A stretch of 64,000 nt of DNA from a bacterium (GCA_027309555.1 DAIDCO010000003.1:6737-70736); one strand, 5' to 3'; numbered from the stretch's first letter, positions 37,799-64,000 are shown. Numbers and translations: made by a program. The notes: generated from the sequence alone by a model not told the origin.

Positions 37799-40700
37799 AT
37801 GCCGTCGCTACGGGGCCTCGGGCATCGCGGCTTCTCCGGGGCAGATTCCGTAGCCCCGTTCGGGAGCGGTGCGAAGGGTGGTTCCCGTCCCCTGCGCCGA
37901 TGGGGACGAACTGCCGGCCTTCGCCGAGAGGCCCGTACCTGGGCCCCCGGGGCAATCCTCGGGTTCCTCCTGCTGCTGGCGACGCTCTCTCCCATGGGAG
38001 GAGCCGCCCCCCTCCCGCACGCGGGCGGGAGCCATTCCGAGAGACCGGGGCCGGGAATGCCTTGGCGCCTCCCGACGCCCCCCTCTCCGCGCGCGCCGGT
38101 CACGGTCGGACCGAGTCCGTTGGGACCGGGAACCGTGGTGGGGACTCTCGTTCTCGCGAACGACAGCTATTTCCCGGGGAACTTCCCGGCGAACAACCCG
38201 GCCGCCATCACGAGCCCGGTCTACGACCCCGCGACCGCTCGGGTCTACATCGCCGACACCGACACCGACAATATCACGGTCCTCGACCCGAGCACGGGAG
38301 CCTTCGTCGCAAACTATCCCACGGGCACGACCAACTTCTCTGCCACCTCCCCCACGGGCATGGCACTCGATAGCTCGAATGGGGACCTCTACATCGCGAA
38401 CTCGGGGAACTCCTCCGTACTCGTCTGGGACCCCCGTACGCTCGCTCCGGTCGCCACGATTCCGGTCGCCAACGGGACCAACACCCTGGCGTACGACCCG
38501 CGGGATGGCGATCTCTTCGTGACCGCCCCCGCCGGAGTCACGGTGGTCTCGGTGATCAACGCGACCACGAACCGGGTGGTCGCGACGGTTCCCGTGGGAG
38601 TCTCTCCGCAGGCGATCGCGGTCGACACGCATACCGGCAGCGTCTTCGTCGGGAACTACGGCAGCAGCAACGTCTCCGTGCTGAACGCCACGAGCTTCGC
38701 CGTGAACCGCACGATCCCTCTGGCCGCCTCCGATGCCCCGAGCGCCGCCTGCTTCGATCCGGTCACGAACGAGATCCTGGTGACCAGCGGGGCCCTCGGC
38801 ATCGTCACCGTCCTCAACGCGAGCATCGGCGCGGTCGTCGCGAACATCACGGTCGCGCCGGCGCTCGCCCACGCGAACCTCGACGCGATCGCGTTCGACA
38901 GTACGAATCACGCCGTCTACACCGCCGATGCCGTCGGCCGGGTCGTGAACGTCCTCAACGTCTCCGCGCGCACCGTCCGGACCAATATCAGCGTCGGGGG
39001 CGAGCCGTCGGGCGTCGCGTTCGACCCGGTACAGAACACCCTCTACTCGACGAACCTCCTCACCGAGAACGTGAGCGTGATCGACCCGGTGACGAACCGC
39101 GTGGTTGCGAGCCCCCGGCTCTCCACGAGTCCCTGGGGCGTCGCCTTCGACCCGACGAACCGGGACCTGTTCGTCTCGAACTCCACCTCGTACGGCGAGG
39201 AGGGCCTCGGCACCGTGATGTCGGTCAATACGAGCACTCCGCGCGTCGGCACCATCTCCGGGTTCGGGTTCGCCCCGTCGGCGCCCCCCCTCGGCTACGG
39301 CACCTACGACGAGACGTACGACCCGGCCAATGGGCGGCTCTACGTGCTCCTCTCCGTGTATGACGGCGCGAACGCGACCACGTACGAGGCGCTCGGAGTG
39401 GTCGACGGACGCACGGGGACCCGCATTTCGGTACTGCCGCTCGAGTACGGCCTGAGCTGCCTGGCGTTCGACACCGCGAACCAGGTCGTCTACGTCGGGG
39501 CGGGATCCCCGAGCGGGGGGTACCTGCTCGGGTTCAACTCCACGGACGCGCTCGTCTCCCAGCTTCCGCTGAACGCGAGCCCGCAGGGGGTCGCCTTCGA
39601 CCCCGCGAACGGGGACCTGTACCTTACGGCGAGCGTGGGCGCCGTAGGTGAGCTCATCGCCGTGGATCCGATAACGAACAAGACCGTGGCGATGTACTCC
39701 CCGGACCCCACGTTCACCGCCACTCGTACCGTCGTGTATGACTCCGTTACCGCGGAGATCTTCGCGGGGAACGACCTCAACGGGCTGGCGGTCCTCAACG
39801 CGACGACCGGCCGATGGGTCGGGAACGTGACCGGGGTCGGGTTCACCGGTCCCGCCGTGTTCGATCAGGCGAACGGCCTCATCTACACCACGGAGGCCGG
39901 AACCAACGACGTCGCCGCCATCAACGGTTCCGCGCTTACGACCGTCGCGACGATTCCGGTCGGGATCGAGCCCGAGGGGATCGCGATGAACGGATCGGGC
40001 GAGACGCTCTACGTGGCGAACCTGCTCTCGGGCAGCATCTCGACGATCTCCCTGGGCGCATCCCCCCCGCCGACCTTGAGCACGGTAACGGTGACCCCGG
40101 GCACTGCGAGCATCCTCCCGCACGGCAACGCCACTTTCACCGCTACCCCGAGCTGCCGCGGCGGCCCCTGCCCGGTCGGTACTACCTACGCCTGGACGCT
40201 CAACAATAGCCTCGGGACCCTGAGCTCGACCAACGGGAGCACGACCTCGTTCACGGCCGGGACTTCGGGAGGCACGGCGATGCTCCACGTCACGGCAGCC
40301 CTCAACGGAGCTAGCGCCTACGGCTCCGCGGCGATCACGGTCGGCCCCGTCACGCCGGGGTTGGTCTCCGTGACGATCTCCCCCGCAAGCGTCACGGTCG
40401 TCGGGCCGAATGGCACCGTGAACCTGACCGCGAGCCCCAGTTGTCGCGGCGGCGCCTGCCCCGCGGGAACGACGTACCTCTGGTCGCTCGGCGGCGCCCT
40501 CGGAACGCTCAACGCGAGCTCGGGGAGCCGGGTGCGCTTCATCGCCGCCGGTACGACCGGGTCTACTACGGTCACGGTCACTGCATCGCTCCACGGGGCC
40601 AACGCTTCGGCGTCGGCGACGATCACCGTCTCCGAGCGTTCCCCGCCCCCGACGTCGGGAGGCGCCTTCCCGACCGGGTATCTCGAGATCGGGCTGGCGC

Positions 40701-40810
40701 TCGCGGCGGTCCTTGCGCTGGGGCTGTATCTCCGGAAGTTCCGAAAGTGGAAGGAGAAGCCCCCCGCATCCGCCCCGGGCCCGCCGGGGCCTTATAGAAT
40801 AATCTATTAG
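37799..40810 (+). CDS. large cell-surface protein with YVTN beta-propeller repeats, duplicated Cys-containing Ig-like domain and C-terminal TM anchor
   Basis: 1003 aa. Signal peptide-like segment; more than 10 YVTN repeats; dozens of N-x-S/T sequons; two copies of PSCRGG[PA]CP[VA]GTTY.W.L; C-terminal LALAAVLALGLYLRKFRKWKEK. Confidence 0.75.
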   Translation: MPSLRGLGHRGFSGADSVAPFGSGAKGGSRPLRRWGRTAGLRREARTWAPGAILGFLLLLATLSPMGGAAPLPHAGGSHSERPGPGMPWRLPTPPSPRAPVTVGPSPLGPGTVVGTLVLANDSYFPGNFPANNPAAITSPVYDPATARVYIADTDTDNITVLDPSTGAFVANYPTGTTNFSATSPTGMALDSSNGDLYIANSGNSSVLVWDPRTLAPVATIPVANGTNTLAYDPRDGDLFVTAPAGVTVVSVINATTNRVVATVPVGVSPQAIAVDTHTGSVFVGNYGSSNVSVLNATSFAVNRTIPLAASDAPSAACFDPVTNEILVTSGALGIVTVLNASIGAVVANITVAPALAHANLDAIAFDSTNHAVYTADAVGRVVNVLNVSARTVRTNISVGGEPSGVAFDPVQNTLYSTNLLTENVSVIDPVTNRVVASPRLSTSPWGVAFDPTNRDLFVSNSTSYGEEGLGTVMSVNTSTPRVGTISGFGFAPSAPPLGYGTYDETYDPANGRLYVLLSVYDGANATTYEALGVVDGRTGTRISVLPLEYGLSCLAFDTANQVVYVGAGSPSGGYLLGFNSTDALVSQLPLNASPQGVAFDPANGDLYLTASVGAVGELIAVDPITNKTVAMYSPDPTFTATRTVVYDSVTAEIFAGNDLNGLAVLNATTGRWVGNVTGVGFTGPAVFDQANGLIYTTEAGTNDVAAINGSALTTVATIPVGIEPEGIAMNGSGETLYVANLLSGSISTISLGASPPPTLSTVTVTPGTASILPHGNATFTATPSCRGGPCPVGTTYAWTLNNSLGTLSSTNGSTTSFTAGTSGGTAMLHVTAALNGASAYGSAAITVGPVTPGLVSVTISPASVTVVGPNGTVNLTASPSCRGGACPAGTTYLWSLGGALGTLNASSGSRVRFIAAGTTGSTTVTVTASLHGANASASATITVSERSPPPTSGGAFPTGYLEIGLALAAVLALGLYLRKFRKWKEKPPASAPGPPGPYRIIY

Positions 40811-42385: not shown

Positions 42386-43213
42386 TCACTCCTTCCCCTC
42401 CGTCGGAGCTTCCTGCTCTCCGAAGACCCCAGCGAGCTGGAGCGGGAACGCGGCCCGGAGCGCTCGCTCCTCCGCCGCCTTCCGGAGCATCGTGATAGGC
42501 ATCTCGACCCACGGCCTCGTGGGTTGGCCGTCCTTGCGCTTCCGGACCGCTTCCTCGAACCAGACCTCCTCCACCAGCGGACGGCTCCAGTCTTTCCGGT
42601 GGACCCGACAGACGGCCTTGACGGGCTTCTCCGGACCGTCGGGCCCCTTCGCGAGCTCTACGCCAATCTCCCGTCCGTCGTACTGGCCGCTCCGCTCGGC
42701 GACGGCCCGCATCCCGTCGATGCCGACAAACGGATGGATCTTGTCCGCGGGATCAAACCGTAGGAACTTCACCTGGCCGAGCCAAACGTCGAGCCCGATC
42801 CGTCGGGCTACCTCGAGCCCGAACGCGATCTCGTCCGCGGTGGAATCCGGGGGGAACCGGCCGGCCGAGCGGAGGACCGCGACCTGCTCCGCGGTAAGTC
42901 CACCGCAGGGTCGTACGCGTAGGTCGGAGGCGGAGCGGAGTGGCGGGCTCCCGGAATCGGGAGAAGAGACCGGATTCGGCTCCGAGGGGGGTACCGGGGG
43001 CAGTCCTGCTTCTTCACGCGCCCTCTCGAAGCAGACGGGCTCGACTCTTCTCCCACGAGATCCGTCACCGTCACCCAGGACGTAGACCGCGCCCGTCGAC
43101 GACCGGGGGACCCTGCGGCCGCAAGCCGCACACTCATACGATCGGTGCCCGCGGTAAACCGAGTAGGAGAGTCCCTCCTCCGAATCGCCCGAGGGCAAGT
43201 CTCTACCGCTCAT
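42386..43213 (-). CDS. RecT/Redbeta-like single-strand annealing protein with N-terminal zinc finger
   Basis: GIDGMRAVAERSGQYDG resembles the RecT core motif (GIDGYRxxAxRxGxYxG). N-terminal YECAACGRR. Start ATG at 43213 (alternative 43309). Confidence 0.45.
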   Translation of the reverse strand: MSGRDLPSGDSEEGLSYSVYRGHRSYECAACGRRVPRSSTGAVYVLGDGDGSRGRRVEPVCFERAREEAGLPPVPPSEPNPVSSPDSGSPPLRSASDLRVRPCGGLTAEQVAVLRSAGRFPPDSTADEIAFGLEVARRIGLDVWLGQVKFLRFDPADKIHPFVGIDGMRAVAERSGQYDGREIGVELAKGPDGPEKPVKAVCRVHRKDWSRPLVEEVWFEEAVRKRKDGQPTRPWVEMPITMLRKAAEERALRAAFPLQLAGVFGEQEAPTEGKE

Positions 43214-43449
43214 GTCGGGTCCCTCCGGCAGGCTCCGAAACGGATTCCCTCGGCGTGACGGACTCGGAAGCACTCCCCCGACTCCGTCGGTTCGTGGCAG
43301 ATCACGCACGAGATCGTCGAGGTCAGGAGCAACTCATGGGCCGACTCAGGATGACCGCAGGCCGGACAGGGGTCGACCTCGCCGTAGGATGGTGCCTCCG
43401 ACCATGGAGGTAGATCGACGGCCAGGGACTCGGCCAGCTCCGCGGTCAT
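43210..43449 (-). CDS. small zinc-ribbon protein
   Basis: 79 aa, CPACG...CVICHEPTESGEC. Coupled by ATGA overlap to the flanking genes. Confidence 0.35.
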   Translation of the reverse strand: MTAELAESLAVDLPPWSEAPSYGEVDPCPACGHPESAHELLLTSTISCVICHEPTESGECFRVRHAEGIRFGACRRDPT

Positions 43450-43748
43450 CACAGTGCCCTCTCCGGCGACTTCGCGCGCGAGATGTCGAATGTCCGCCGC
43501 TCCTCGAGGATCCGCCGGACCAGCCGGTCGAACGACTCGTAGCCGACGAGATTCCCTTCGGAGTCTACCAAGGGGCGACGGAGCGAAGCGAGGAGGCTCC
43601 ACGTCTCTGGACGGAGGCGGACAATGCCCCTCGGCGATATTGGCCGGATCCTGCCAACTGAACTTGGGCCGGCCCGTGGCGCTGCTTCCCCGAACCCCTT
43701 CGTCCGCATCAATTCGCACCTTTCGTTACGAATGGTACGAATACGCAC
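43449..43748 (-). CDS. ribbon-helix-helix (CopG/Arc-like) small regulator
   Basis: GIVRLRPETWSLLASL...FDRLVRRILEE beta-strand-helix pattern. Start may be the internal ATG near 43709. Confidence 0.35.
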   Translation of the reverse strand: MRIRTIRNERCELMRTKGFGEAAPRAGPSSVGRIRPISPRGIVRLRPETWSLLASLRRPLVDSEGNLVGYESFDRLVRRILEERRTFDISRAKSPERAL

Positions 43749-43757
43749 AATCTATAA

Positions 43758-43991
43758 GTGCCTTCCCCTCTTTATGTAACGTCCGTGACGACGACCGCCC
43801 TGCCCAAGCCCAAGAAGAAGATCCTCCCGAAGGTGTCCGTCGCGGGACGAATCGAACGAGGCTACTACGAGGACCTCGTGCGGATCATCGACGGCGACGA
43901 CCACTTCAACCGGATCGGAGACTTCGTCCGAGAGGCGGTCTTGGAGAAGATCGATCGGTGGAAGAAGGAACATCCCCGTGGTCTGTCGTGA
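43758..43991 (+). CDS. ribbon-helix-helix (CopG family) DNA-binding protein
   Basis: KKILPKVSVAGRIERGYYEDLVRII...FVREAVLEKIDRWKK. Divergent from the minus-strand RHH. A TATA-like TCTATAAG lies about 20-40 nt upstream. Confidence 0.45.
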   Translation: MPSPLYVTSVTTTALPKPKKKILPKVSVAGRIERGYYEDLVRIIDGDDHFNRIGDFVREAVLEKIDRWKKEHPRGLS

Positions 43992-44458
43992 GCCTTTTCC
44001 TAACGAACCCTAACAGGGGCCGCCCCTTCGGGGAAGAAGAACCGAGATATCGGGGATCTCGACCCCAGAAGGTAGAACCAATTTCAACGGGCTTGGAGTA
44101 TCCGAGGCGGCCCCATCTATCGCTTCGGTTCCGCCATCCCACAGGACGGCCCTTGCCACCGCGGCCGATAGCCCCGTCCTCCCGTGGTATCGCAGCTCGA
44201 GAACTTCGAGCTTCCCAGCGAGCGGCCCAACCACGCTCGCTTGCGCGGTTGCCCAAAGGTGTACGTTGCGGCGAAGGGCAGCCTAGCGGCAGAGGATGAT
44301 ACTGATCCCGGAAAAACCCAAATGAGCAAAGCTCGGTACTTCACACAGGACTCGCTCTCAGTATTCGGGCGAGCCTCTCGGGTGGCAGGGTGCGGCGACT
44401 GCGTCAATCGAACCGCACCATTAACCACTGAGGCGTAGCTCCGTAATGCGACAGCGCG

Positions 44459-45565
44459 ATGCCTAACACTGACGAGACTGTGTGGGAGATGGAACCGCAC
44501 ACGGGTTCCAAGCACGACATTCTCCGTCACTATCTGAATCGCTGGCTTCCGATCCTCGGAAAGCGGAGCACGACGATGAACTACATTGACGCATTCGCGG
44601 GCCCCGGAATTTACAAGGGGGGCGAGCCCGGGAGCCCGGTAGTCGCGATTGAAACCGCCCGAACCCACGTCATGCGACCAAAGGGAAAGGTGAATTTCCT
44701 CTTCATTGAGAAGGACGGCGAACGAGCTCGGGTCCTCAAGGAGCAACTCGCCAGTCGTTTCCCGGCGGGGACCCTACCCGACGGTTGGAGCTACGCAGTC
44801 GAAAACGGAGAGTTCGTGACCGTAGTGGAGAAAGGTCTCAACGAAATCGAGGCCCAAGGAAACCACCTTGCTCCGACGTTGGCGTTTCTCGACCCGTTCG
44901 GATTCTCGGGACACGACCTCCCCATGTCAACGGTCGGAAGGATTCTCAAAGCCCCCCGGTGCGAGGTGTTTGTTACCTTCATGGCAGGGTTCGCCACCCG
45001 GTTTCCGGAGGTCGTCCCGCCTGACACTATGACGAAGCTGTTCGGCGACGAGAGGTGGCGCGGTGTCGTCGACCTCAAAGGCGAGGCCCGTACCGACTTC
45101 CTCCTTGCGACATACGAGGGGTCGCTCAAGACAATCGCTGGAGCCAAGTTCACACGTAGCTTCGAAATGAAATCCTCTGACGGTCGCGTGATCTACGACC
45201 TCGTCTTCGCGACGAAGCACCCCAAGGGACTCGAGGCAATGAAAGAGGCCATGTGGGAGATTGACCCGCGAGGCACCTACACCTTCTCGGACCGCACCGA
45301 TCCAAACCAACGATTCCTCATCGAGTTCGACGGCGGTGTGGAGCCGCACTGGGTGGCGAAGGCCGCGCAGATGCTCCTCGTCCGGTTTTCTGGCAAGACC
45401 ATCTCGAGGAGAGCCCTTTGGGAGTATGTCGTAGTCGACACTCCGTTTCCCGACCGCTCCTCAGTCCTCAAGCGGCTGGAACTCGATGGCAAGCTAACGG
45501 TCTCGGGGCGACAGAGAAAACTCAGCTACCCCGACGGGTGTACGCTATGCTTCCAGCCCTCTTGA
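44459..45565 (+). CDS. tcmP: three-Cys-motif partner protein TcmP
   Basis: N-terminal W.MEPHTGSKHDILRHYL..W signature, about 368 aa. Convergently paired with a Gp37/Gp68 (DUF5131) gene, as the family definition states. Confidence 0.65.
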   Translation: MPNTDETVWEMEPHTGSKHDILRHYLNRWLPILGKRSTTMNYIDAFAGPGIYKGGEPGSPVVAIETARTHVMRPKGKVNFLFIEKDGERARVLKEQLASRFPAGTLPDGWSYAVENGEFVTVVEKGLNEIEAQGNHLAPTLAFLDPFGFSGHDLPMSTVGRILKAPRCEVFVTFMAGFATRFPEVVPPDTMTKLFGDERWRGVVDLKGEARTDFLLATYEGSLKTIAGAKFTRSFEMKSSDGRVIYDLVFATKHPKGLEAMKEAMWEIDPRGTYTFSDRTDPNQRFLIEFDGGVEPHWVAKAAQMLLVRFSGKTISRRALWEYVVVDTPFPDRSSVLKRLELDGKLTVSGRQRKLSYPDGCTLCFQPS

Positions 45566-46273
45566 CTGGCTCGGAAACTCGTTCCAAGTGCGACCGTCCA
45601 GAATACGCCCTGTTCTTGCCTTTTGGACGCCTCCCCATTGCTTGAAGAAGAAGGGGACTGCCTCGCGGCGGCATCGGTTCCTCAGCGTCCTGACCCACTC
45701 CTTCCTCATGGGTCGCGCGTGAGGTCCGCTTTCTCCTCCGACAATAACCCACTGGATCCCGGAGAGGTCCAGTTCATCGAGGGGACCGAGGAGCGGTTCG
45801 AGCGAAAGGAACCGGACGTCAGCGGGGACCTTGCGGAGTTCGTCCGCCCGCCACCCGACGTCCATGTTCTCGATGCTGACTCCCTGCCAGATGTTGGGTT
45901 GCCACGGGAGTGAGGGTCCTACCTCCGCCAACCGCCTCGCGCGTTTCGTCAGAATCTGGAAGACATGCTGGCGGGCGACGACCATTGTCGCGAAGACACG
46001 CCGAATGAAGGTGACCGGCACACGTTCATGGTAGAGGTCGCTCATCGAGTTGACGAAAATTCTCCGGGGCTCTGTCCACGATAGAGGCAACTCGAGGCGG
46101 TCTTCCCAAAGACGGAGGTCGAAGCCCTGCTCAAACGGGTGGCCGGGCACCCCTCGGAAACGCTCCGCGAACCGTTGCGCATAACAGTGTTTACAACCCT
46201 GGCTGACCTTCGTACAACCCGTGACCGGGTTCCACGTCGAGTCCGTCCACTCTATCGAGGAGGACTCGCTCAT
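45545..46273 (-). CDS. phage Gp37/Gp68 family protein (DUF5131, three-Cys motif)
   Basis: WNPVTGCTKVSQGCKHCYA three-Cys signature at the N-terminus. 242 aa. Confidence 0.75.
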   Translation of the reverse strand: MSESSSIEWTDSTWNPVTGCTKVSQGCKHCYAQRFAERFRGVPGHPFEQGFDLRLWEDRLELPLSWTEPRRIFVNSMSDLYHERVPVTFIRRVFATMVVARQHVFQILTKRARRLAEVGPSLPWQPNIWQGVSIENMDVGWRADELRKVPADVRFLSLEPLLGPLDELDLSGIQWVIVGGESGPHARPMRKEWVRTLRNRCRREAVPFFFKQWGGVQKARTGRILDGRTWNEFPSQSRGLEA

Positions 46274-46396
46274 CCCTCACGACTTGAACGGCACCCTCCT
46301 TTAGGGTTCCGTCCGTACGGTCCCCCGCGAGCCGAGTCGGATCCTGCGGCCCTCCGTGGAAAACTCGATTACCCATGACCCCTACTCCCCCGTGAC

Positions 46397-49294
46397 TTGC
46401 CAGTAAGCGAGGATACGATCAACGACCTCGTCGCGGACTACCTCCGCGGCGAGTTTGACGTGGACATTACAACCCAGCCGACCGGACAGATTCCCGCAGG
46501 CCGGCGGAAGCCCGACTTCGAACTCCACTGGGACGGGAAGACGTACTTCGGCGAGGGCGAGTGGCTCTCGTCGTACGGTCGGGGCTTACAGCAGGCCTTG
46601 GATTTCGGCGAAATCCCCGGGGCCAGTGGCTGGTTCCTGCTCGGGTATCCAGACGAAATCAAGCGCGAGGTGACACAGCGACGCCTTGGGTCGGCCGACC
46701 CGGCAACCCTACTCAGGGGGCTGACATTCCGCCAGTGTCTCCTCAAGGGCCCGGGAACGCCCGCCGACCTTCGTCAGGTTCGCGTAGAAGACCTTCATGC
46801 GTGGATTGGTTCCGTCCTCGCCGCTCGTCCACCTGCCCCCGAGCCCGCCGAGTTCATCCGGCTGATGCACTATGTCGTCGGGAACCTCGCCACGTTCCTT
46901 CCGAAGACGAAGGGAGCGGCACGACTGTTCGAGCATGTCGTGGCTATGATTCCGAGCAAGAAGGACGAGGAGGATGCCGCTCGGACCGGGGCGGCATACC
47001 TCCTTCTGAACCAGCTTGTCTTCTATCGTCTATTGGCCGGGCACACCGAACTGGGGTGGCCTCAGATGGAGGCTCGTTCGGTCAGGTCTCCACTCGACGT
47101 GAAGGTGTACTTTGACCGCGTGATGCAACAGGACTATCACGCGATCTTCAAGACGAACGTAATCGACCTGTTCCCTCAGCGCGCGTTCCCGTTCATCCAA
47201 AGCCTCATCAAGCTCGTCTCGGAGCTTCAACCCGAGGCGTTCACACGGACCCTCCTCGGGACGATTTTTCATCAACTGATCCCCGAGCCGGTTCGAAAGC
47301 CGGTCGCTGCCTTCTACACTCAACCACCAGCGGCCCGCCTTCTAGTCGGACTTGCGGGTGTTCATGGGTCCGATCGAGTTTCGGATTTCGCCTGCGGTTC
47401 GGGAACTCTCCTCGTGGCTGCCTACGAGGCGAAGAGCGAGACGGACTCCCGACCGAACTCTCAGTCGCGTCACGCGACGTACCTTGAGCAGGAGTTGACG
47501 GGAATCGACATCATGCCGTTCGCCGCGCACTTGGCCGTCGTCCAACTGGCCCTGATGAATCCCACTCAGTGGACGAACCGGGTCCAGGTCGCGGTCGACA
47601 ACAGCCTCGAAAAGCGGGTTGGCGACGTCGTTCGTTCCCTCGAGCGTCACGCGGTCTCCCCGCAGACTCGACTCTCTCACTTCGCTGAGGAACCGGAGGA
47701 GCGGGCTCGTACGGTCCGCGGGGCCGTTTCTACGAATGGGGCGGGGGCTCAGTTCAAGCTTGTCCCGCCTCAGGTCGTACTGATGAATCCACCGTTCTCA
47801 CGGAAGCAGTTCATCTCGAAGGAGTACCGGAAGGAACTGGCGACGAGCTTCACGGACGAGGCAAAGTTCCACCGAAACGACATGGGCTACTGGGGGTACT
47901 TCGTCCTCCTCGCCGACCGGTTCCTTCCTGACGGAGGAAAGCTCGCACTCGTCATCTCGGCAGCCCTGCTCCGGGAGGGGAGTTCCGCAAGCATCCGGGA
48001 GATGCTCCGAAGCAAGTATCGCCTAGACTTCATCGTAATGAGTGCGTCTCGGACCGCGTTCAGCGAGGACGCCTCGTTCCCCGATTTCTTGCTCGTAGCG
48101 ACGAAGACGGCCGACCGGTCCAAGCCGTGTCGAGTCGCGATGCTTCACGCTCCCCTTGAACTGGAGGGGGTCGATTGGATACGGACCCGAATCGAGAGCG
48201 GAGAGGGGGCTCCCGAAGTCGCTGTGGCTACGCTTGCTCAGGACCGATTCGCCGCTGACGATTGGCTCCCGCTGGTCCCCGGTGCGGTTCCGGACGAATC
48301 TAGTATCCTTCTCCCCAAGACGGCGCCAGTTTGCAAGTTGGGTGCCGTGTCCGGCCTCGGTCTGATTCAGGGAATCCGGATGGAATCGGGGAGCGAGTTC
48401 GCGAACCCAGCGGACATGCTCGTCTCTTCCGAGCGAAGTTACGAGTCGCGAGCCGCCTGGAAGACAACGAAGGAGGACGCCCGGGTTGTCGTCGCATACA
48501 ACCCAGAGGGGGCGCGGGAGGTCACGATTCCACGGCACGCCCTTCTCCCGGCGCTGAGAACGATCTCAGGAAGCCGACGACTCGAAGTCAAAGGACGACC
48601 TCCTGACTATGTTGTCGCGGAGAGGTTCCCCCACGACACCGAGTTCTGGGTGACGAAGAATCCCGAGGGAATGCTCGTCCGTCGTCGTAAGCACTTGCGG
48701 AGTCGCGTGGGGAACATCGTCTTCGGCGGCTATGGCAATCTCAATCTCTCTGCCGAGGGAACTTCGCTTCTCGCAGTGGCCTCGAAGTCGGGAATCGCCC
48801 CGACTTGGAACTGTTGGAGTGTGAAGACTCCCGATTGGGACACAACCCGAATTCTCACGCTGTGGTGGAATTCAACGTTCAACCTACTCTACCTCCTTCA
48901 CCACCGGATGGAGGTCGAGGGTGCCACTATGAAGTGGCGCAAACCGAGTCTCGAGGCAGCCCCTGTCCTCGACATTCGGCAGTTGGACGCAGGGACGAAG
49001 GCGAGGCTTCTCGCCCTGTTTGACCGACTCACCGTAGTCGACTTCCCCTCCATCGCCGAGCAGTACGCCAAGGCGCCCCCCCAAAGGACGGAACTCGACT
49101 CCGAAGTGGGTCGGGCTCTCGGGATTGCCAAGGAGGAACTCCCGAGCCGGTTGAATGACCTCTACCGACTCGTCAGCGACGAATTGACTACTCTGAGGTC
49201 TCGGATGAAGGCCACCTCGCTCGCCAAGAGTCACGGACACGTTCGACGCCCCTCGAGCATCGAGGAGCATGTCGACGGCGGGCCAGTGGACTAA
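46397..49294 (+). CDS. type IIG restriction-modification enzyme (MmeI-like; N6-adenine methyltransferase fused to an N-terminal region)
   Basis: 965 aa. Gamma-class MTase motif I DFACGSGTLL followed by motif IV LMNPPF. About 300-aa N-terminal region before the MTase core and about 350-aa C-terminal TRD-like region. Confidence 0.7.
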   Translation: MPVSEDTINDLVADYLRGEFDVDITTQPTGQIPAGRRKPDFELHWDGKTYFGEGEWLSSYGRGLQQALDFGEIPGASGWFLLGYPDEIKREVTQRRLGSADPATLLRGLTFRQCLLKGPGTPADLRQVRVEDLHAWIGSVLAARPPAPEPAEFIRLMHYVVGNLATFLPKTKGAARLFEHVVAMIPSKKDEEDAARTGAAYLLLNQLVFYRLLAGHTELGWPQMEARSVRSPLDVKVYFDRVMQQDYHAIFKTNVIDLFPQRAFPFIQSLIKLVSELQPEAFTRTLLGTIFHQLIPEPVRKPVAAFYTQPPAARLLVGLAGVHGSDRVSDFACGSGTLLVAAYEAKSETDSRPNSQSRHATYLEQELTGIDIMPFAAHLAVVQLALMNPTQWTNRVQVAVDNSLEKRVGDVVRSLERHAVSPQTRLSHFAEEPEERARTVRGAVSTNGAGAQFKLVPPQVVLMNPPFSRKQFISKEYRKELATSFTDEAKFHRNDMGYWGYFVLLADRFLPDGGKLALVISAALLREGSSASIREMLRSKYRLDFIVMSASRTAFSEDASFPDFLLVATKTADRSKPCRVAMLHAPLELEGVDWIRTRIESGEGAPEVAVATLAQDRFAADDWLPLVPGAVPDESSILLPKTAPVCKLGAVSGLGLIQGIRMESGSEFANPADMLVSSERSYESRAAWKTTKEDARVVVAYNPEGAREVTIPRHALLPALRTISGSRRLEVKGRPPDYVVAERFPHDTEFWVTKNPEGMLVRRRKHLRSRVGNIVFGGYGNLNLSAEGTSLLAVASKSGIAPTWNCWSVKTPDWDTTRILTLWWNSTFNLLYLLHHRMEVEGATMKWRKPSLEAAPVLDIRQLDAGTKARLLALFDRLTVVDFPSIAEQYAKAPPQRTELDSEVGRALGIAKEELPSRLNDLYRLVSDELTTLRSRMKATSLAKSHGHVRRPSSIEEHVDGGPVD

Positions 49295-49401
49295 CCGCCT
49301 GTGAGAGTCAACGCCGTCTGTCGACCACTCAACGGATGATACGACGTGCAGAGCCCACGCCTCCGCCTCATTAATGGGACGCTTCCGGCTCAGGGGAGTA
49401 C

Positions 49402-49605
49402 ATGCGGATGGCGGAGGCCGTCGCAGTCGGGCTCGTGACGGCCTTCTGGATACTAATCGACCTCTGGCTTCTGCTCAATCCCGACATTGCGGACGGTCTT
49501 GCTGGGAATCTAGGCACGTCCGCGATCGTCCTCGAATTGGGTGTCCTACTCCTCGGAGGTCTTGCCACATGGACGACACACTGGGCGGCCGAAAATCTGG
49601 ACTGA
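49402..49605 (+). CDS. small membrane protein
   Basis: 67 aa with two hydrophobic helices. Confidence 0.3.
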   Translation: MRMAEAVAVGLVTAFWILIDLWLLLNPDIADGLAGNLGTSAIVLELGVLLLGGLATWTTHWAAENLD

Positions 49606-49711
49606 ACTACGGGTCGGCCATTCTCGGTGGGAAACTACAACTCGCAGAGGTCTCTTGGTCCCGCAACGGCCCAAGCTCGCGGGCTCGAACTGCCATGAGT
49701 CCGCCATTGAT

Positions 49712-49933
49712 TCAGGCCCCCTGCTTTGAGGAGGGGCCCCTCGAAGCCGTGGCGTGAACGACTCCGATCGCCTCGCGGAAGTCTCGGTTCTTCCGTTCTC
49801 CCGTCTCCCGGAGCGCCGTCTCGGCGAGTTTCTTGAGATCCTCCGGGACGTCCCTCCTCGACTTGATCGAGTCGTAGAACATGAGGGCCATCTCTCTCGC
49901 GCCGTCCCAGTACTCCCTATCGAACCGATTCAT
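49712..49933 (-). CDS. small hypothetical protein
   Basis: MNRFDREYWDGAREMALMFYDSIKSRRDVPEDLKKLAETALRETGERKNRDF. About 73 aa, helical and charged. Confidence 0.3.
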   Translation of the reverse strand: MNRFDREYWDGAREMALMFYDSIKSRRDVPEDLKKLAETALRETGERKNRDFREAIGVVHATASRGPSSKQGA

Positions 49934-50098
49934 GATGAACCACCTTCTGGGACTCGGATTGTATGCGCGGGCGCATATCACCCACACCGGGAGTTCCTGA
50001 AACACCTCCCCCGTCAGCGCATCCGAGCCTGTCGAGGGGGTCCCGTTTCAGGCCCGGCTCCATTCGAGCCCAGCCCCCTTGGAAGCCTACTCGACGTT

Positions 50099-50944
50099 CT
50101 ATCCCTTCCCTGACAGCCTCCGTCTTACCATGACCGCTCCCGACGTCCTTGGTGGCGGTCGTTCAAGCTCGTACTTCCCAGGAATCGCCTCCAGGAGGTC
50201 CCCCAGCTTGCTCTTTCCGAAGGTGCGCGGATCGAAGGCAGGATCGAGCTTCAGCAACGCGTTGCCCAGCTCCGCCAGGTGACAGTATCCGTCCTCCCCG
50301 ACAACTGAGTCAAAGGCCTTATCGATGAGCTCGAAGGCTTCGGTCGAGGCCCGACGACCGCCAGGACCTTCTGTCAGGGCCGAGGCACTCGGGGTCGTCG
50401 CAGAGGAAGGCCTCCTCGACCTCGCAGGCGGCGGGCTCTCTCTGCGAGATCCAATCAGGTTCTCGGTGGCCACGAACACGTTGCATGCGTTTCTGAACGC
50501 GGGAGGGGTCTGGGCCCTACCGATCCCCACGACGAACATGCCAGACTCGCGAAGCCGGGTGGCCAATCTCGTGAAGTCCGAGTCAGACGATACGATGCAA
50601 AATCCTCTGACCCTGCCGCTGTGCAGGATGTCCATGGCATCGATGATCAGCGCGCTATCGGTGGCATTCTTCCCTGAAACCGCGGTGAACTGCTGAACCG
50701 GGACCAGCGCATGCTCCTGAACCGTGGGTCGCCAGGAGGAGAGCTTACCGGAGGCCCAGTCGCCATAGATCCGTCGGATCTCAACTGACCCGTACTTCGC
50801 TGCCTCGGCGAGCATCTCACCGACGAGCCCGGCGGACGCATTGTCTCCATCCACGAGGAAGGCGAGAGGGAGCGATCGAGAATGCGTTACGAGCTCGAGG
50901 GTACCCGGCTCGGCATCGGGAGGCATGGGCCTGGCGATGCACAT
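50099..50944 (-). CDS. NYN (LabA-like PIN) nuclease domain protein with C-terminal OST-HTH/LOTUS domain
   Basis: LAFLVDGDNA (NYN Asp cluster), IVSSDSDF, and a C-terminal OST-HTH-like segment (GYCHLAELGNALLKLDPAFDPRTFGKSKLGDLLEAIP). Confidence 0.6.
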   Translation of the reverse strand: MCIARPMPPDAEPGTLELVTHSRSLPLAFLVDGDNASAGLVGEMLAEAAKYGSVEIRRIYGDWASGKLSSWRPTVQEHALVPVQQFTAVSGKNATDSALIIDAMDILHSGRVRGFCIVSSDSDFTRLATRLRESGMFVVGIGRAQTPPAFRNACNVFVATENLIGSRRESPPPARSRRPSSATTPSASALTEGPGGRRASTEAFELIDKAFDSVVGEDGYCHLAELGNALLKLDPAFDPRTFGKSKLGDLLEAIPGKYELERPPPRTSGAVMVRRRLSGKG

Positions 50945-51172
50945 GAACGTGATGAAACTTACACACCTCGGCGTTGGCCCATGACGGATGGGTCCGGGCC
51001 CGACTCAATTCGGGCCGCCGTCCACGACCTTCTCCGAAGTGGCGTACACGAATAGCTACAACAGTTACTTCTGTACGCGAATGTGAAATATACCTCGGCG
51101 TCGATGATCACCCTCGGGCGAGGCGGGCGGAATCCTGGGTGAGGCGTTGCCGCCCGACCTCGTCCCCGTACC

Positions 51173-53863
51173 ATGAAAGGGAAAGGCGAGACCGGAAGCG
51201 CGACCAAGAGCCGAACGTTCAAGCTCCGAGGCTGGAAACTCCCTCGGGTCGCCAGGGACCGTTGGTGGGCGGCGCCAGTCGCCCTCCTCGTGGTGGCCGC
51301 GATCCTCGCGACCTCGGTCGTCCTCCTCACGGGAGGCACCCGGGTCGTTCAGGAGGAGTGGTCGGCGATCAACCTCTCCCTCGGGTCGAATCCGCTCTCG
51401 CAGCAGCTGAACATCACCTTCGCGAGGGTCAGCTACCTCGACCAGCCCACCCAGTGGAACACGACCGGCTTCCTCAACGCCTCCCTGAGCGCGAACGGAG
51501 CCTGGCTCGACAACACCAGCAGCTACGGGACCCACTACGGGATCGCTCAGGTCAACTCGACCTCGACCGGCACCACGGCGCTCGCCAGCTGGCCGCTCTC
51601 TTCCTACCTCGGCGCGAACGTCAGCTACGCCTTCCTCGACCAGCGGGTCGCGCTCAACGGCACCGGGACCACCTGGCAGCTCGTCCTCTCCGAGGCTCAG
51701 CAGACGGGTCAGGTCTCTACGTCCGGCAACGTCACGAATGGGGCGGCCGGGGCTACCCAGAACGAGGTCTGGGTCCAGGCCTTCTACTCCGCGGGGAACT
51801 TCAGCTTCCTCGCCTACGACTGGGAGGAGAAGCCCGGCGGCTTCCAGACCGTCACCACCTACACCTTCCCCTCGAACGTCGGGGCGCCTCCGCTCCAGTT
51901 CTTCGAGGTCTACGTCTACGCCCAACCCCTCCAGACGGTCGTCAGCATCGTCAACACGACCAACGGAGCCGTGATCGGCTCGACCCCCGCGATGCACCCG
52001 GTCCTCGATGAGAACCTCACGAAGATCGGCTACCTCGGCGACACGCTCACCGCGGCGGCCTCGAGCGTCGACTCAGCGATGATCCTCGACTCCGCGTTCT
52101 TCGTCGACCACAATACCTACGCGAACGCCCCGGGAGCCTCGACCGCCGCGATCCCGATGGTCGCGGGCTCGGTGTCGATCCCCAACGCCGCTCCCTTCGA
52201 CCCGGCGTCCGTGGCCACTCACTGGCTCAATCCGCCGAACTCCCAGAACAGCTACTCGAGTCTCACGGGGTCCCTCTCCGACTTCCCGAGCGTGGTGAAC
52301 TCCTCCTCGTCGGCGAGCGAAACGAGCTCGCTGATCAACGCGACGGCGATCCTGAACTCGACCACGACGGCGAGCGAGGCCGGCGCCGCGGGCACCCTCG
52401 CCACGATCCGCTCCACTCCCGAGGACCAGACGGACGCAGTCAGTTCGACGGCCTACGCGACGACCTGGACTCCCCAGACGATCCAGAGCCAGATCCACTC
52501 CTTCCTGACGAACTACATCTCGGCGAACACCGGGGTCCCGGCCGCCGACATCGAGATCCCGGGCATGCTCGTCTCGAACATCGCCGTCTGGACCCAGTTC
52601 TCGAGCCAAGCGGCGAGCACGATCCACGACTACCTCGCGAGCGCCATTCCCGGGTTCCTCCAGTCGAACAACCTCGCGCTGGTCAACCGGACCACGGGCG
52701 CCATCGACGCGGGCGCCGACATCGGTGAGTTCATGGACCTCTCCACGGGAGCGGTCTATGCGGGTCAGACCAACGACTTCGGTGGGGTATTCGACCCGGT
52801 CGACCACCAGTGGTATGCGAGCGCCGAGGCGGCGGGATTCCCGTCCGGCTCGGGAGTCGGCGCGTCCGGGGCGATCTTCGTCCCCGGGCAGGCCGCGTTC
52901 CTCGGATGGGCCGCGAATGGCGAACCCGAGTTCGGAGTCGGGGGTTGTTTCATCGTCTGTCTCGGCTCGGCGCTCACCGGCGCCGCCTCCGCCGTCTCGA
53001 ACTTCGTCGGCTCCGCCGCGAGCACCGTGAGCAACGCCGTGGGTGGCGTCACGAACACGGTCTCCAACGACGTCATCAAGCCGGTCTCGGGAACCCTCGG
53101 AGGCGACCTCAGCGGCGTCTCGACCGACGTCTCGAAGGCCGTCGACCAGGTGATGCCGTTCTTCGGCGGAACGATCGCGAACATCGGCGGAGCCGTCCAG
53201 GGAACCCTCAGCCACACGCTGAGCGGCATCACGAGCGGGATCGGTTCCGCCGCGAGCGGAGCGGCGGGAGCCATCCTCTCGGGCGTCAACTCGATCTCGA
53301 ACACGATCTACCACGTCGGTGCCGCCGCGGGGTCCGCCATCGGCAGCCTGCCCGGGGAGATCCAGAGCGGGCTCAACGTCGTGGGCAACACCGTGGGAAA
53401 GGTCGTCAGCACCTCCGCGGCTGTTCTGTCGAGCGCCTTCACCACCGCCAGGAACGTGGCGGGTGACGTCGGCAGTGCGATCCTGAACGGCGGCAAGAGC
53501 CTCCTCAGCCTCGCCGGGAACGCCGCCGGCGCCGTGGCCGGCGCGCTCAACACGGTCGGGAGCGCCATCGTGAATGGGGCCTCGGGCGCCCTGAGCTGGG
53601 TCGAGAACGCCTTCGGGACGGCGGGCGCCGACATCATGAACGCGATCAAGGCGATCGGCGGAGCGCTGAATCCGTTCAGTTGGTTCTCGGGATTCTCCTC
53701 GCAGGTCGCCCAGATCCTCGAATACGTCGTGATCGGAGTCGTCGCGTTCGTCCTCGTCTTCGCGATCGTGTTCTTCCTGCACCGTCGGTCGAAGAAGCAC
53801 GGCTCGCGGCAGCGGGGCGGGGAGCGCGGGCGGCACCGCAGCCGACACGCCCACCGGGCGTGA
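51173..53863 (+). CDS. large surface protein with N- and C-terminal TM segments and Gly/Ala/Ser/Val-rich periodic repeats
   Basis: 896 aa. N-terminal TM (WWAAPVALLVVAAILATSVVLL), N-glyc-sequon-rich ectodomain, repeated G-x-A-x-x-V/S-x-x-x-V modules (about aa 600-840), C-terminal TM plus basic tail. Confidence 0.55.
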   Translation: MKGKGETGSATKSRTFKLRGWKLPRVARDRWWAAPVALLVVAAILATSVVLLTGGTRVVQEEWSAINLSLGSNPLSQQLNITFARVSYLDQPTQWNTTGFLNASLSANGAWLDNTSSYGTHYGIAQVNSTSTGTTALASWPLSSYLGANVSYAFLDQRVALNGTGTTWQLVLSEAQQTGQVSTSGNVTNGAAGATQNEVWVQAFYSAGNFSFLAYDWEEKPGGFQTVTTYTFPSNVGAPPLQFFEVYVYAQPLQTVVSIVNTTNGAVIGSTPAMHPVLDENLTKIGYLGDTLTAAASSVDSAMILDSAFFVDHNTYANAPGASTAAIPMVAGSVSIPNAAPFDPASVATHWLNPPNSQNSYSSLTGSLSDFPSVVNSSSSASETSSLINATAILNSTTTASEAGAAGTLATIRSTPEDQTDAVSSTAYATTWTPQTIQSQIHSFLTNYISANTGVPAADIEIPGMLVSNIAVWTQFSSQAASTIHDYLASAIPGFLQSNNLALVNRTTGAIDAGADIGEFMDLSTGAVYAGQTNDFGGVFDPVDHQWYASAEAAGFPSGSGVGASGAIFVPGQAAFLGWAANGEPEFGVGGCFIVCLGSALTGAASAVSNFVGSAASTVSNAVGGVTNTVSNDVIKPVSGTLGGDLSGVSTDVSKAVDQVMPFFGGTIANIGGAVQGTLSHTLSGITSGIGSAASGAAGAILSGVNSISNTIYHVGAAAGSAIGSLPGEIQSGLNVVGNTVGKVVSTSAAVLSSAFTTARNVAGDVGSAILNGGKSLLSLAGNAAGAVAGALNTVGSAIVNGASGALSWVENAFGTAGADIMNAIKAIGGALNPFSWFSGFSSQVAQILEYVVIGVVAFVLVFAIVFFLHRRSKKHGSRQRGGERGRHRSRHAHRA

Positions 53864-53890
53864 GGGCGCCCGGAGGGTCGGTGTTCGGAG

Positions 53891-54379
53891 ATGGCCCAGT
53901 CGAGCAGCCAGGGGAAGCACGCACGAGGTGGAGGATGGAGCGGTATCCTTGGTCTGTTCTTCCTGATCCTGGTCGTCGAACTCGTCCTGGACGTCGTGCT
54001 CCTCCCCGCGGATGTGGTGATCGTCCCGGCGGAGCTGATCGGGGACGCGCTGTTCCTCGCGGTCGGCGTCGGTGGCGCCTTCATGGCGGGCCGGGGGACT
54101 GGAAGGTCGATCCGGCCGCCTCCTCGCTCCTCGCGGTCCCTGCAGGGAAACCGGAAGGCGATCGCGGACTCGGGAGCGGCGCTGGTCCTCGGCTACTGGA
54201 CCTTCGTGGTGGCGATCCTCGCCTTCCAGTGGTGGTTCGCCGTCCACCACCCGATCCTGAACATCCTGACCTTCCCCTTCGAGCTCGTCTTCGACGTCCT
54301 GCTGTTCATGGCGGGAGTCCTGGTCACGCTCTTCGGGGTCTCCCGGAGGTCATCGGATTCCCGGGAGGTCGGCTCGTGA
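53891..54379 (+). CDS. small polytopic membrane protein
   Basis: 162 aa, 4 predicted TM helices. Confidence 0.4.
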   Translation: MAQSSSQGKHARGGGWSGILGLFFLILVVELVLDVVLLPADVVIVPAELIGDALFLAVGVGGAFMAGRGTGRSIRPPPRSSRSLQGNRKAIADSGAALVLGYWTFVVAILAFQWWFAVHHPILNILTFPFELVFDVLLFMAGVLVTLFGVSRRSSDSREVGS

Positions 54380-62514: not shown

Positions 62515-63212
62515 CCGGTGGGACCACGGCGCTCTACGTGCGAGTGAGTTCCGAGGAGCAAGACCTAGTCGGACAGGAACGAGAGTTGCGCGGTTACGCC
62601 GAGGCCAGGAACTGGACGGTCGTCGGCAGCTACGCCGAGAAGGTCACGGGGACCGGGAAGGTCGAGCGGAAGGCGTACGAACGTCTCCTGCGGGACGCGG
62701 GGGAACGGAAGTTCGATCACCTGGTGGTCTGGGCGCTGGACCGGTTCAGTCGAGAGGAGACGTTCACGAAGGCCACGCAAGCGATCCTCGACCTGGAGGG
62801 GCTCGGTATCCGGTTTCACTCGCTCAAGGAACCGATGTTGGACACCCCCGAGGACGGCCGGCCGAACCTCGGAAGAGACGTGCTGCTTGCACTGCTTCCG
62901 GTCATTGCGAGCTTCGAGTCGAAGCGTCGGTCGGAACGGGTCCGTGTGGCGATGCGGGAGATCAAGGAGGGACGACGGCGGACGCGTAGCGGGCGTCCGC
63001 CGGGTCGGCCCGTCCGGGCGACGCCCGAGAAGGTGTCGGCGATCGTTCGCCTGAAGGCCCAAGGGCTGACGTGGAGGGTCATCGCCCAACGAGTCGGGCT
63101 GCCGAGGGGGACCTGTGCCAACGTCGCTTCCCGGGTGCGCCGGGGGCTATTAGAAAACTCTCTCGATACGAAAGGGTCGGATCGGCCTTCGACGGACCCG
63201 GTCCCTACGTAA
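62511..63212 (+). CDS. serine recombinase (resolvase/invertase family)
   Basis: ALYVRVSSEEQ, LDRFSRE motif. Paralog of the recombinase at 1200..1907. Confidence 0.8.
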   Translation: MTGGTTALYVRVSSEEQDLVGQERELRGYAEARNWTVVGSYAEKVTGTGKVERKAYERLLRDAGERKFDHLVVWALDRFSREETFTKATQAILDLEGLGIRFHSLKEPMLDTPEDGRPNLGRDVLLALLPVIASFESKRRSERVRVAMREIKEGRRRTRSGRPPGRPVRATPEKVSAIVRLKAQGLTWRVIAQRVGLPRGTCANVASRVRRGLLENSLDTKGSDRPSTDPVPT

Positions 63213-63536
63213 AGTGCCCGTTTCGGACCCCGTTCGTAAGAGCCTAATCAGCGGGCAGCTTTGTCGGGTGTCTCCAGAGGGGACTGACTGTCGATTCAAT
63301 TCTCCATCGTTCAGAGGGCCGGTCCTCTCAGTTCTTGAGGCCAGGGTCCGGATCGATGAGCAGCCCGCGAGTCGGTGTAGCCGCGAGCGAGTCTTTCGAC
63401 TTACGGCCACAGACTTGATTCCGTTAGCCTGGAGCCTCTCCAAACGGGTTAGCTCTTAACCACGGCTTTGAAACCATCCACCCTGGGAAGTCCGAAATAC
63501 GCGAGTCGCGTGCCGGGAAGCGAGGATCAGCACACA

Positions 63537-64000
63537 TGGCTTCTCACAGGCAGGCCTGGCGCCAAGGATTGAGGGTTGGGTGGATCATAGGTTTGATAGT
63601 CATCCTGGTGGGGACAGGCCTTGCATCGGTTACCGCCCCAGCAGCGGCGAATTCGACGGCGCCTACCGTCCATGTAGACACTTCGAACCAGGCCCTGACG
63701 ACCCTCCCGCTTCTACCACCTCAAGGAGTTTCGGCTCCATCGATTGGCACGAACGGCGAACCGCCTGCCGCCTCAGGAGGGGGCGACGAGTGGGTAAACG
63801 CGTGGACTGACCAAAACGCTCAATCCGGGTTCGACGGACTTCGCGGAACAGTGGACGCGATTAGTCCGGCCATTCCCTGCCCAGGTTCGGGCCACATCGA
63901 TTACGACTGGGCCGGCGTAGAGGCCCGTACCTCGGCGAACGATGTGGTCGACATGGGCTTCTTCGTCCAAGAGAGCGCGCTTTCTTTCGGGGTCTGTGGA
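63537..64000 (+). CDS. secreted protein, 5' partial (runs off window end)
   Basis: ATG at 63537, N-terminal TM/signal (WIIGLIVILVGTGLASVTAPAAA), and an open frame to the window end. Not in the ORF track because no stop falls inside the window. Confidence 0.4.

Follow-up and report, generated by a model that had tools for sequence, protein, structure and literature searches.

What is the function of a gene pair that encodes TcmP (three-Cys-motif partner protein) and DUF5131 (phage Gp37/Gp68 family)? The question is raised by a stretch of 64,000 nucleotides (GCA_027309555.1, DAIDCO010000003.1:6737-70736; hereafter the window), where the two genes lie tail to tail in a block of low GC content next to a gene for a large predicted DNA methylase. 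A first-pass annotation, made from the sequence alone, suggested that the pair could be a nucleic-acid modification module in a defence or anti-defence island. Here we examine the two proteins, their pairing and their genomic context. We tentatively propose that they carry out a two-step modification of a nucleic acid, likely DNA, that depends on S-adenosylmethionine (SAM) and is used in defence.

The window encodes a catalogued two-gene cassette

Both genes belong to well-defined families. TcmP matches TIGR04474 with 193 bits (cutoff 53; E 9e-57; model positions 1-262 of 263), Pfam PF22560 (3e-6), and the PADLOC models PDC-M30A (4.4e-53) and PDC-M41A (1.9e-12). DUF5131 matches PF07505 with 324 bits (cutoff 28.9; 5.7e-97; model positions 2-243 of 243), PDC-M41B (3.6e-109) and PDC-M30B (3.3e-104). 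A weak match of DUF5131 to TIGR04471, rSAM_mob_pairA, is also found (1e-19). Both subunit hidden Markov models (HMMs) of the PADLOC candidates PDC-M30 and PDC-M41 are therefore matched by adjacent genes in the window. PDC systems are embedding-based predictions, and M30 and M41 lie outside the tested set (bioRxiv 10.1101/2024.01.29.577857).

The first-pass annotation described a recurrent cassette of unknown biochemistry. No activity has been reported for it, but the cassette is already catalogued (TIGR04474/PF07505, PDC-M30/M41). The window genes are adjacent, score far above thresholds and stand in a mobile and defence-type context. They differ from the known cassette in nothing essential; the window holds an archaeal member, probably from the Thermoplasmata, in a typical mobile setting, with the two genes convergent and overlapping. 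The open reading frames (ORFs) lie where the first-pass annotation had placed them, and the overlap, given there as about 20 nt, is exactly 21 nt (Table 1).

TcmP is predicted to have a methyltransferase fold related to RlmJ and Trm1

The AlphaFold2 model of TcmP, built from 45 homologues, has a predicted local distance difference test (pLDDT) score of 86.9 and a predicted template modelling (pTM) score of 0.86. A long N-terminal helix is followed by a seven-stranded class-I methyltransferase topology and then by a winged helix. The methyltransferase fold comprises residues ~1-270, and the GMT-wHTH winged helix residues ~276-350. The solved folds nearest to the model are the rRNA N6-methyladenine (m6A) methylase RlmJ and the tRNA N2,N2-dimethylguanine (m2,2G) methylase Trm1; generic methyltransferases reach no more than about 12.7 in the fold comparison. 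Fold similarity to methyltransferases, on which the idea of a modification module had been made to depend, is thus present in the model.

The cofactor motifs are invariant among the 45 family members. They include motif I D44-G-F-A-G-P-G50, motif II with E84 ending strand 2, and motif IV D145-P-F-G148. W9, H14, T15, K18, H19 and L22 in the N-terminal helix are invariant as well. RlmJ (23S rRNA m6A2030; PDB 6qe5, 2oo3) shares with TcmP an N-terminal helix with His/Asp-Leu-(Lys/Arg)-His about 30 residues before motif I, a motif I of the form DxxAGxG, an acidic motif II and a motif IV that starts with Asp-Pro. In the E. coli RlmJ (MG1655 record), the helix reads H-x-G-N-H-x-D-V-L-K-H and lies ~30 residues before YLDTHAGAG. 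Both elements of the RlmJ-type fold, the N-terminal helical motif and the class-I Rossmann core, are found in the TcmP model.

The resemblance of the TcmP N-terminus to RlmJ-like enzymes, pointed out in the first-pass annotation, therefore holds for the invariant signature, the fold and the cofactor motifs. It does not extend to family membership. TcmP does not belong to PF04378 at the sequence level, and its motif IV is DPFG, whereas that of RlmJ is DPPY. TcmP also has an additional C-terminal winged helix-turn-helix (wHTH) domain and a nearly obligate radical-SAM neighbor, and RlmJ serves a housekeeping role on rRNA. Trm1 (tRNA m2,2G26; PDB 3axt, 2dul) has no sequence match to TcmP, acts alone on tRNA and carries a different C-terminal domain. 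On the basis of the model, TcmP is RlmJ-related in fold and cofactor motifs yet outside the RlmJ family, and Trm1 is a structural relative almost as good.

Sequence methods tie TcmP residues 1-270 to no known family. A Pfam scan of the 45 members at E<=5 returned the C-terminal wHTH only and no methyltransferase family. Searches against solved structures with the single sequence, the 45-sequence profile and a 36-residue motif-IV peptide returned noise only. Alignment of the TcmP profile with the single E. coli RlmJ sequence by hhalign gave a probability of 2.9% over motif I only, which is too weak alone. SEA-PHAGES annotators have labelled the TcmP homologues of Gordonia phages ‘methyltransferase’.

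DUF5131 is predicted to be a minimal radical-SAM enzyme

DUF5131 contains a cysteine triad, C20-X6-C27-X2-C30, that is invariant in 36 sequences; its spacing is non-canonical for radical-SAM enzymes. The DUF5131 profile aligns by hhalign with the PF04055-positive radical-SAM proteins resembling spore photoproduct lyase (SPL) that replace it at other TcmP loci (probability 94.8%, E 5.5e-8). In this alignment, CX6CX2C is placed on the canonical CX3CX2C. The DUF5131 fold has the partial or full TIM barrel of radical-SAM enzymes and matches radical-SAM barrels, with SPL among the top three. A sequence search of DUF5131 against solved structures returned noise only. RadicalSAM.org also assigns DUF5131 to the radical-SAM superfamily, in Megacluster-5-2 beside SPL in 5-3 (PMC9477430). 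Taken together, DUF5131 is predicted to be a minimal radical-SAM-type enzyme.

The SPL-like proteins (PF20903, COG1533) share homology with DUF5131 over the region that binds the cluster. DUF5131 differs from them in its length, which is less by ~100 residues, in its cysteine spacing (CX6CX2C, where they have CX3CX2C) and in the absence of a PF20903 match, and it is not known to be a lyase. DUF5131 is also highly conserved, with 70-88% identity to more than 100 clusters, versus ~45-50% for the top matches of TcmP. At two loci (L086, L087), DUF5131 is ~80% identical to the window protein, versus ~23-25% for the adjoining short TcmP-like protein. A DUF5131 call of 201 residues in one metagenome-assembled genome (MAG) reflects another choice of start; the DNA is identical.

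TcmP is almost always paired with a radical-SAM gene

We analyzed 80 TcmP loci in species-representative genomes and counted partners within 600 nt. A DUF5131 partner is found at 51 loci, as expected if the two form a recurrent cassette, and an SPL-like radical-SAM partner (PF20903/PF04055) at 26. Two of the remaining loci are at contig ends and one has no partner, so that TcmP is paired at 77 of the 78 informative loci. The two partner classes follow the relatedness of TcmP. Nearest neighbors in TcmP relatedness have the same partner class in 57 of 67 cases; the expectation is 37.5, and 1000 shuffles gave at most 54. This association is partly confounded by taxonomy.

All orientations of the pair occur, and about 60% are co-directional and operon-like. 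Convergent genes that overlap or abut, as in the window, account for 13 of the 51 DUF5131 pairs and 11 of the 26 SPL-like pairs (24/77 in total), often with an overlap of 4-30 nt.

The dependence is one-sided. Of the phage records, 180 contain DUF5131 and 11 contain TcmP. In a sample of 80 viral contigs that carry DUF5131, a broadened HMM detects a TcmP-like gene next to it in 42 and none in 36. DUF5131 is solo in the mycobacteriophages Bipper and Estave1. Since DUF5131 is often solo and TcmP rarely is, TcmP appears to require a radical-SAM enzyme, and the converse appears not to hold. This suggests that TcmP depends on the radical-SAM step. We also considered an alternative conserved partner for the lone viral DUF5131, which was rejected, as the unpaired viral loci share no neighbor.

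Several individual loci show further arrangements. Two cassettes are found back to back in Nitrososphaerales/Nitrosopumilaceae (L011 7988-12168, also L012, L016 and L017). These loci contain a short TcmP-like gene (~300-316 residues) with DUF5131 and, transcribed divergently from it, a full-length TcmP gene converging on an SPL-like radical-SAM gene, indicating that both partner types can coexist at one locus. In Synechococcus phage Ssp-JY39 (L172 2992-4610), DUF5131 is convergent with, and overlaps by 46 nt, the gene for a 305-residue ‘hypothetical protein’ that proves to be TcmP-like, though divergent in sequence (HMM E 3e-14). A gene for a recombinase of the Bet/RecT type lies 2 kb from this pair, echoing the RecT gene beside the island in the window. 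In Bipper (L171, genes 79-80), a gene with an ASCH domain, elsewhere predicted to read modified nucleic-acid bases, is located directly 3’ of the lone DUF5131.

The pair is found near defence genes and in prophage immunity loci

No direct neighbor of the pair is conserved across loci. Many neighbors are defence genes, however, in agreement with the association with restriction-modification (R-M) or defence genes that had been predicted for other genomes carrying the pair. Scanned with PADLOC, 134 flanking proteins gave matches that include mad2/mad3, CapP, RmrA/AriA-type ATPases, HmaC, DrmMI, and methylases of types III and IIG. When nine large neighbors were scanned singly, seven gave strong PADLOC defence matches. 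In other genomes, genes directly beside the pair encode HmaC, DrmMI/IIG, mad3-like ATPases and a type III methylase, so that Hma, DISARM/IIG-like, type III and MADS-like genes are represented. Some loci have IS66 or integrase genes among the flanking genes.

Two loci connect the pair to the Hma system. In an Actinomycetes MAG (L061 1795-10340), the co-directional TcmP and DUF5131 genes have HmaA, an SNF2 helicase, on one side and HmaB, an adenine methylase, on the other, both full-length. This is the type of embedding from which the PDC-M30/M41 candidates were derived. At L009, HmaC is directly downstream of TcmP. Published data are in line with such a context. The S. meliloti TcmP SMa2243 adjoins the defence gene Hna and is co-induced with it (PMC12445080), and in P. 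aeruginosa PDC-M30 is slightly more frequent where there is phage resistance, a weak correlation (PMC10855318).

The pair is also present in temperate phages. In Gordonia phage ThankyouJordi (L170, MK801727), genes 38-43 encode an integrase, two small proteins, DUF5131 (41), TcmP (42) and the immunity repressor (43). TcmP starts 3 nt past the repressor stop in the same orientation, and its 3’ end overlaps that of the convergent DUF5131 gene by 4 nt. This position is typical of cargo expressed in the lysogen. ThankyouJordi and its relatives have the pair as immunity-locus cargo between integrase and immunity repressor. Unlike these prophages, the element in the window has only a putative integrase-like gene and a RecT gene, and no phage structural genes were found in it by Pfam and PHROG scans; it is not recognizable as a provirus.

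A two-step modification is the preferred, tentative reading

In our interpretation, the low-GC block is cargo that was probably acquired horizontally, beside a putative integrase-like/RecT module, and consists of three separable modules. The first would be the TcmP-DUF5131 pair, a self-contained cassette of two enzymes that both use SAM. TcmP would combine the RlmJ/Trm1-like amino-methyltransferase fold with a winged-helix domain that binds nucleic acid. DUF5131 would be a minimal [4Fe-4S] radical-SAM enzyme of the clade that includes the DNA-acting SPL. The two would most likely act in sequence at one site in a nucleic acid, probably DNA. DUF5131 would perform the radical step, which would come first or at least be autonomous; TcmP would bind the target and methylate either an exocyclic amine or the intermediate generated by the radical step. 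The product may be a non-canonical base mark for the discrimination of self and non-self, serving either anti-virus defence or protection of the element’s own DNA. The predicted 965-residue methylase and the NYN/LOTUS protein would be the second and third modules, each independent.

Several observations weigh against this reading. The nearest characterized structural relatives of TcmP, RlmJ (rRNA) and Trm1 (tRNA), act on RNA and not on DNA. The TcmP winged helix is nearly as conserved as the core (0.56 versus 0.66, only slightly lower), indicating that TcmP has no hypervariable target-recognition domain (TRD), a feature that is usual in sequence-specific DNA methylases. Gene order and orientation of the pair vary among loci, and its nearness to defence genes was seen in sampled loci, without a genome-wide background. 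The lone DUF5131 in lytic mycobacteriophages implies a role without TcmP, which could be repair and not modification. In addition, the literature on DUF5131, TcmP and GMT-wHTH contains passing mentions only, with no biochemical or phage-challenge data for any member.

The first two of these points would be expected if the target were tRNA or rRNA, where the pair would make a modified ribonucleoside for abortive infection or for translation tuning by the mobile element; an enzyme without a hypervariable recognition domain would suit a substrate that is fixed and conserved. Methyltransferase and radical-SAM enzymes act in succession in tRNA wybutosine synthesis (Trm5, then TYW1), and a predicted RNase of the NYN type is encoded in the same block. 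However, the NYN gene is not conserved beside the pair elsewhere, SPL, the nearest characterized relative of the radical-SAM partner, acts on DNA, and the surroundings of the pair are mostly systems built on DNA methylases, or prophage immunity loci. We consider an RNA target unlikely. The relationship to SPL also allows a role in DNA repair, in which DUF5131 and the SPL-like proteins would fix a photoproduct or crosslink in packed or desiccated DNA, TcmP would bind the lesion or be an accessory, and the location near defence genes would be due to hitch-hiking. Consistent with this are the homology and fold similarity to SPL, the many phages with DUF5131 alone among replication and recombination genes, and the RecT/Bet genes nearby in the window and in Ssp-JY39. 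Repair leaves unexplained, however, an almost obligate partner with fully conserved SAM-methyltransferase motifs, and the Hma embedding and the adjacency to prophage repressors point to defence or lysogenic-conversion cargo. We find this explanation quite unlikely. A restriction-like system has also been considered, in which the radical-SAM enzyme damages unmarked foreign DNA and methylation by TcmP shields that of the host. The defence-type neighborhoods and the intact motif sets of both proteins are compatible with it, and the convergent 3’ overlap, present in phages too, permits independent promoters as in many R-M pairs. Yet the majority of pairs are operon-like, and DUF5131 often occurs without a TcmP-like gene, which is unexpected for a toxin that requires an antidote. 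Moreover, a very conserved radical-SAM protein of 240 residues has no domain to match the specificity of its partner. Such a system is improbable, to about the same degree as an RNA target.

The predicted methylase next to the pair raises the possibility of a three-component system, in which the pair would, for example, process or read an m6A mark. Methylase, DUF5131 and TcmP (or a short TcmP-like protein) occur together not only in the window, where all have equal GC content at third codon positions (GC3), but also at L086, L087 and the Acidimicrobiia loci L046/L071. Gene orders differ among these loci; that of L087 is the window order. However, a TcmP-like or SPL-like gene lies within 6 kb at only 1-2 of 80 metagenomic loci of the methylase family, and a methylase of this kind is present at only 2 of the 80 TcmP loci. 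The recurrence can be explained by repeated co-location of independent defence-type modules in defence islands, and a three-component system is very unlikely. The least probable explanation, which we regard as hardly credible, is that the product of the pair is an antiviral small molecule or nucleotide, as with viperin, and not a modified polymer. The TcmP wHTH and the relationship to SPL point to a nucleic-acid polymer, and neither a nucleotide kinase nor a transporter is conserved among the neighboring genes. Sequential modification of a nucleic acid, likely DNA, by DUF5131 and TcmP is the reading that we prefer, with the reservations given above.

The low-GC block is probably mobile cargo

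The block that contains the pair is clearly distinct in composition. Between 43 and 51 kb, eight successive 1-kb windows have a mean GC content of 0.614, versus 0.694 (standard deviation 0.026) in the other 56, of which one reaches 0.632 or less. The markedly lower GC content in the first-pass annotation is thus borne out, and a 500-nt sliding GC window, which sets the limits at ~43.3 and ~51.1 kb, extends the block somewhat beyond the 44459-49294 described there. GC3 is 0.73 in TcmP, DUF5131, the 965-residue methylase and the NYN gene alike, and 0.79-0.91 in the RecT gene, the integrase-like ORF and the two flanking surface-protein genes. We infer that the block is horizontally acquired cargo. 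The recent transfer proposed earlier fits these values, the RecT gene and putative integrase-like ORF next door, and a Phage_integrase gene beside the pair in the nearest genome relative (L005).

Table 1. Features of the low-GC block and its borders in the window (aa, amino acids)
Feature	Coordinates	Strand	Remarks
Putative integrase-like ORF, 444 aa	40835..42169	+	Adjoins block; host-like GC
RecT/Bet-type single-strand annealing protein (predicted)	42386..43309	-	Pfam RecT 2.8e-25; phrog_252 2e-28
Lower-GC block	43300..51100		Contains TcmP, DUF5131, 965-aa methylase, three small ORFs, NYN/LOTUS gene
TcmP (three-Cys-motif partner protein)	44459..45565	+	368 aa
Overlap of the convergent 3’ ends of TcmP/DUF5131	45545..45565		21 nt; read from sequence
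DUF5131 (phage Gp37/Gp68 family)	45545..46273	-	242 aa
N6-adenine DNA methyltransferase (predicted), single chain, ~950-aa family	46397..49294	+	965 aa
NYN (predicted RNase) + OST-HTH/LOTUS protein	50099..50944	-	281 aa; edge of low-GC block

L005 is a Thermoplasmata MAG, with identities of 72% for TcmP and 83% for DUF5131. Its pair has the same convergent overlap as in the window. The host of the block is an archaeal genome, probably of the Thermoplasmata. Identical copies of the island are present in four assemblies, two of them MAGs and two from read sets.

Two genes at the left border may relate to mobility. The RecT/Bet-type protein, whose start is set at 43213 by gene callers, is predicted to be a recombination protein of a mobile element or virus. 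The adjoining ORF of 444 residues, present on every contig that bears the island, may be a tyrosine-recombinase-like integrase; this identity was assigned by eye only and is unconfirmed, with no matches in Pfam, NCBIfam, PHROG or PDB. A search for att sites around the block found direct repeats at chance level only, and the sole tRNA gene in the window is at 32952. An empty site was not found, as every contig with the flanking gene of 1003 residues bears the island and the flank of 896 residues is not on record. An Rfam scan of 40-52 kb gave no matches.

On either side of the island, very large genes of high GC content (37799-40810 and 51173-56103) encode repeat-rich secreted or surface proteins (NHL/beta-propeller, Kelch-like). 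They contain many N-x-S/T sequons and C-terminal hydrophobic anchors. These flanks suggest an insertion site among cell-surface genes and not a multi-system defence island.

Other parts of the block have less clear coding content. A stretch of 467 nt upstream of TcmP (43992-44458) has no convincing ORF or Rfam match. It is not kept in L005, where an ORF of 272 residues abuts TcmP. Three small ORFs (65, 62 and 73 residues) are located between the methylase and NYN genes (49408-49933) and were called by gene callers in all island copies; one was searched for family matches, and none were found. An ORF of 65 residues is also directly 3’ of the methylase homologue at L086. Elsewhere in the window, 26001-29000 has an AT skew of -0.27 to -0.31 over 3 kb, unlike the remaining sequence, and a second GC drop to 0.616 occurs at the window end (63001-64000), the sole equally low 1-kb window outside the island.

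The methylase and the NYN/LOTUS protein are probably independent modules

The methylase core is that of an N6-adenine enzyme. Pfam matches are N6_Mtase (9.8e-13), Eco57I (6.7e-8) and MmeI_Mtase (PF20473; 29.2 bits versus a cutoff of 27); the last score is below the generic N6_Mtase and Eco57I scores. PADLOC matches to mad2, MTase_I/II and IIG are all weak. The invariant motif I, D330-FACGSG (D-x-x-C-G-S-G in the family), precedes motif IV, N464-PPF, suggesting a gamma-class enzyme. Profile matches in PDB are confined to this core and include type I M subunits, BseCI, BsaXI, BpuSI and PglX.

Like type IIG/IIL enzymes (MmeI, BpuSI, Eco57I family), the protein is a single large chain with a gamma-class N6-adenine core and no conserved partner; no conserved neighbor was found at 77 loci of its family. 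Unlike them, it has no detectable MmeI nuclease, helical, TRD or C-terminal domain, and in PDB its profile best matches type I M subunits and BseCI, not MmeI. Of the earlier label ‘MmeI-like type IIG’, the N6-adenine core therefore stands, and the likeness to MmeI is reduced to a marginal MmeI_Mtase match. Residues 1-280 and 590-965 have no Pfam match even at E<=1, though they are conserved in the family. The N-terminal motif P-D40-F...G-E53-G-E55-W...Q66, at residues ~39-66 (46397-46600 in the window), is invariant in all 37 aligned members and resembles PD-(D/E)xK without the lysine. It could be a remnant or variant of a nuclease; the homologue at L046 has one weak HSDR_N match (E 0.21). Judged from these features, the methylase is probably an independent module that is type IIG/IIL-like in build, with a putative nuclease. 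An obligatory three-gene system of methylase and pair was rejected, as the methylase family mostly occurs without the pair.

The NYN/LOTUS protein matches Pfam NYN (7e-31), OST-HTH (2.4e-9) and phrog_37744 (1.9e-50), and has no PADLOC matches. It would be a further independent cargo gene. The defence island proposed for the window, with an R-M enzyme and an NYN nuclease as its members, is supported in so far as the pair is near defence genes elsewhere; it is not supported by the methylase, found mostly without the pair, or by the NYN protein.

Implications for the cassette family

The TcmP family is large, with 8,806 clusters at 50% identity (E<=1e-3) in bacteria, archaea and temperate phages. 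Our analysis extends the description of the catalogued cassette in six respects: TcmP has a predicted RlmJ/Trm1-like fold; the catalytic motifs are invariant; DUF5131 and SPL-like proteins are interchangeable as partners; TcmP appears to depend on the radical-SAM enzyme but not vice versa; the pair occurs in prophage immunity loci; and the neighboring methylase is probably independent. These results narrow experiments to a few residues, D44, E84 and D145 in TcmP and C20, C27 and C30 in DUF5131, and to a likely order of action. The Gordonia phages, in which the pair is beside the repressor, and the Hma-embedded copy are tractable models.

The pair might even represent a new immune or epigenetic class acting on nucleic acid, the first radical-SAM-dependent DNA modification for discriminating self from non-self, with a modular radical enzyme that is either DUF5131 or SPL-like. 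In such a system, which would extend over bacteria, archaea and temperate phages, the radical-SAM enzyme and the RlmJ/Trm1-like methyltransferase would jointly make a non-canonical base mark or a lesion in DNA. We regard this broader proposal as doubtful. Should the pair indeed generate a novel modification in DNA or RNA, the chemistry known from epigenetic and immune systems would be extended, and a new enzyme pair would be gained for the tool-kit.

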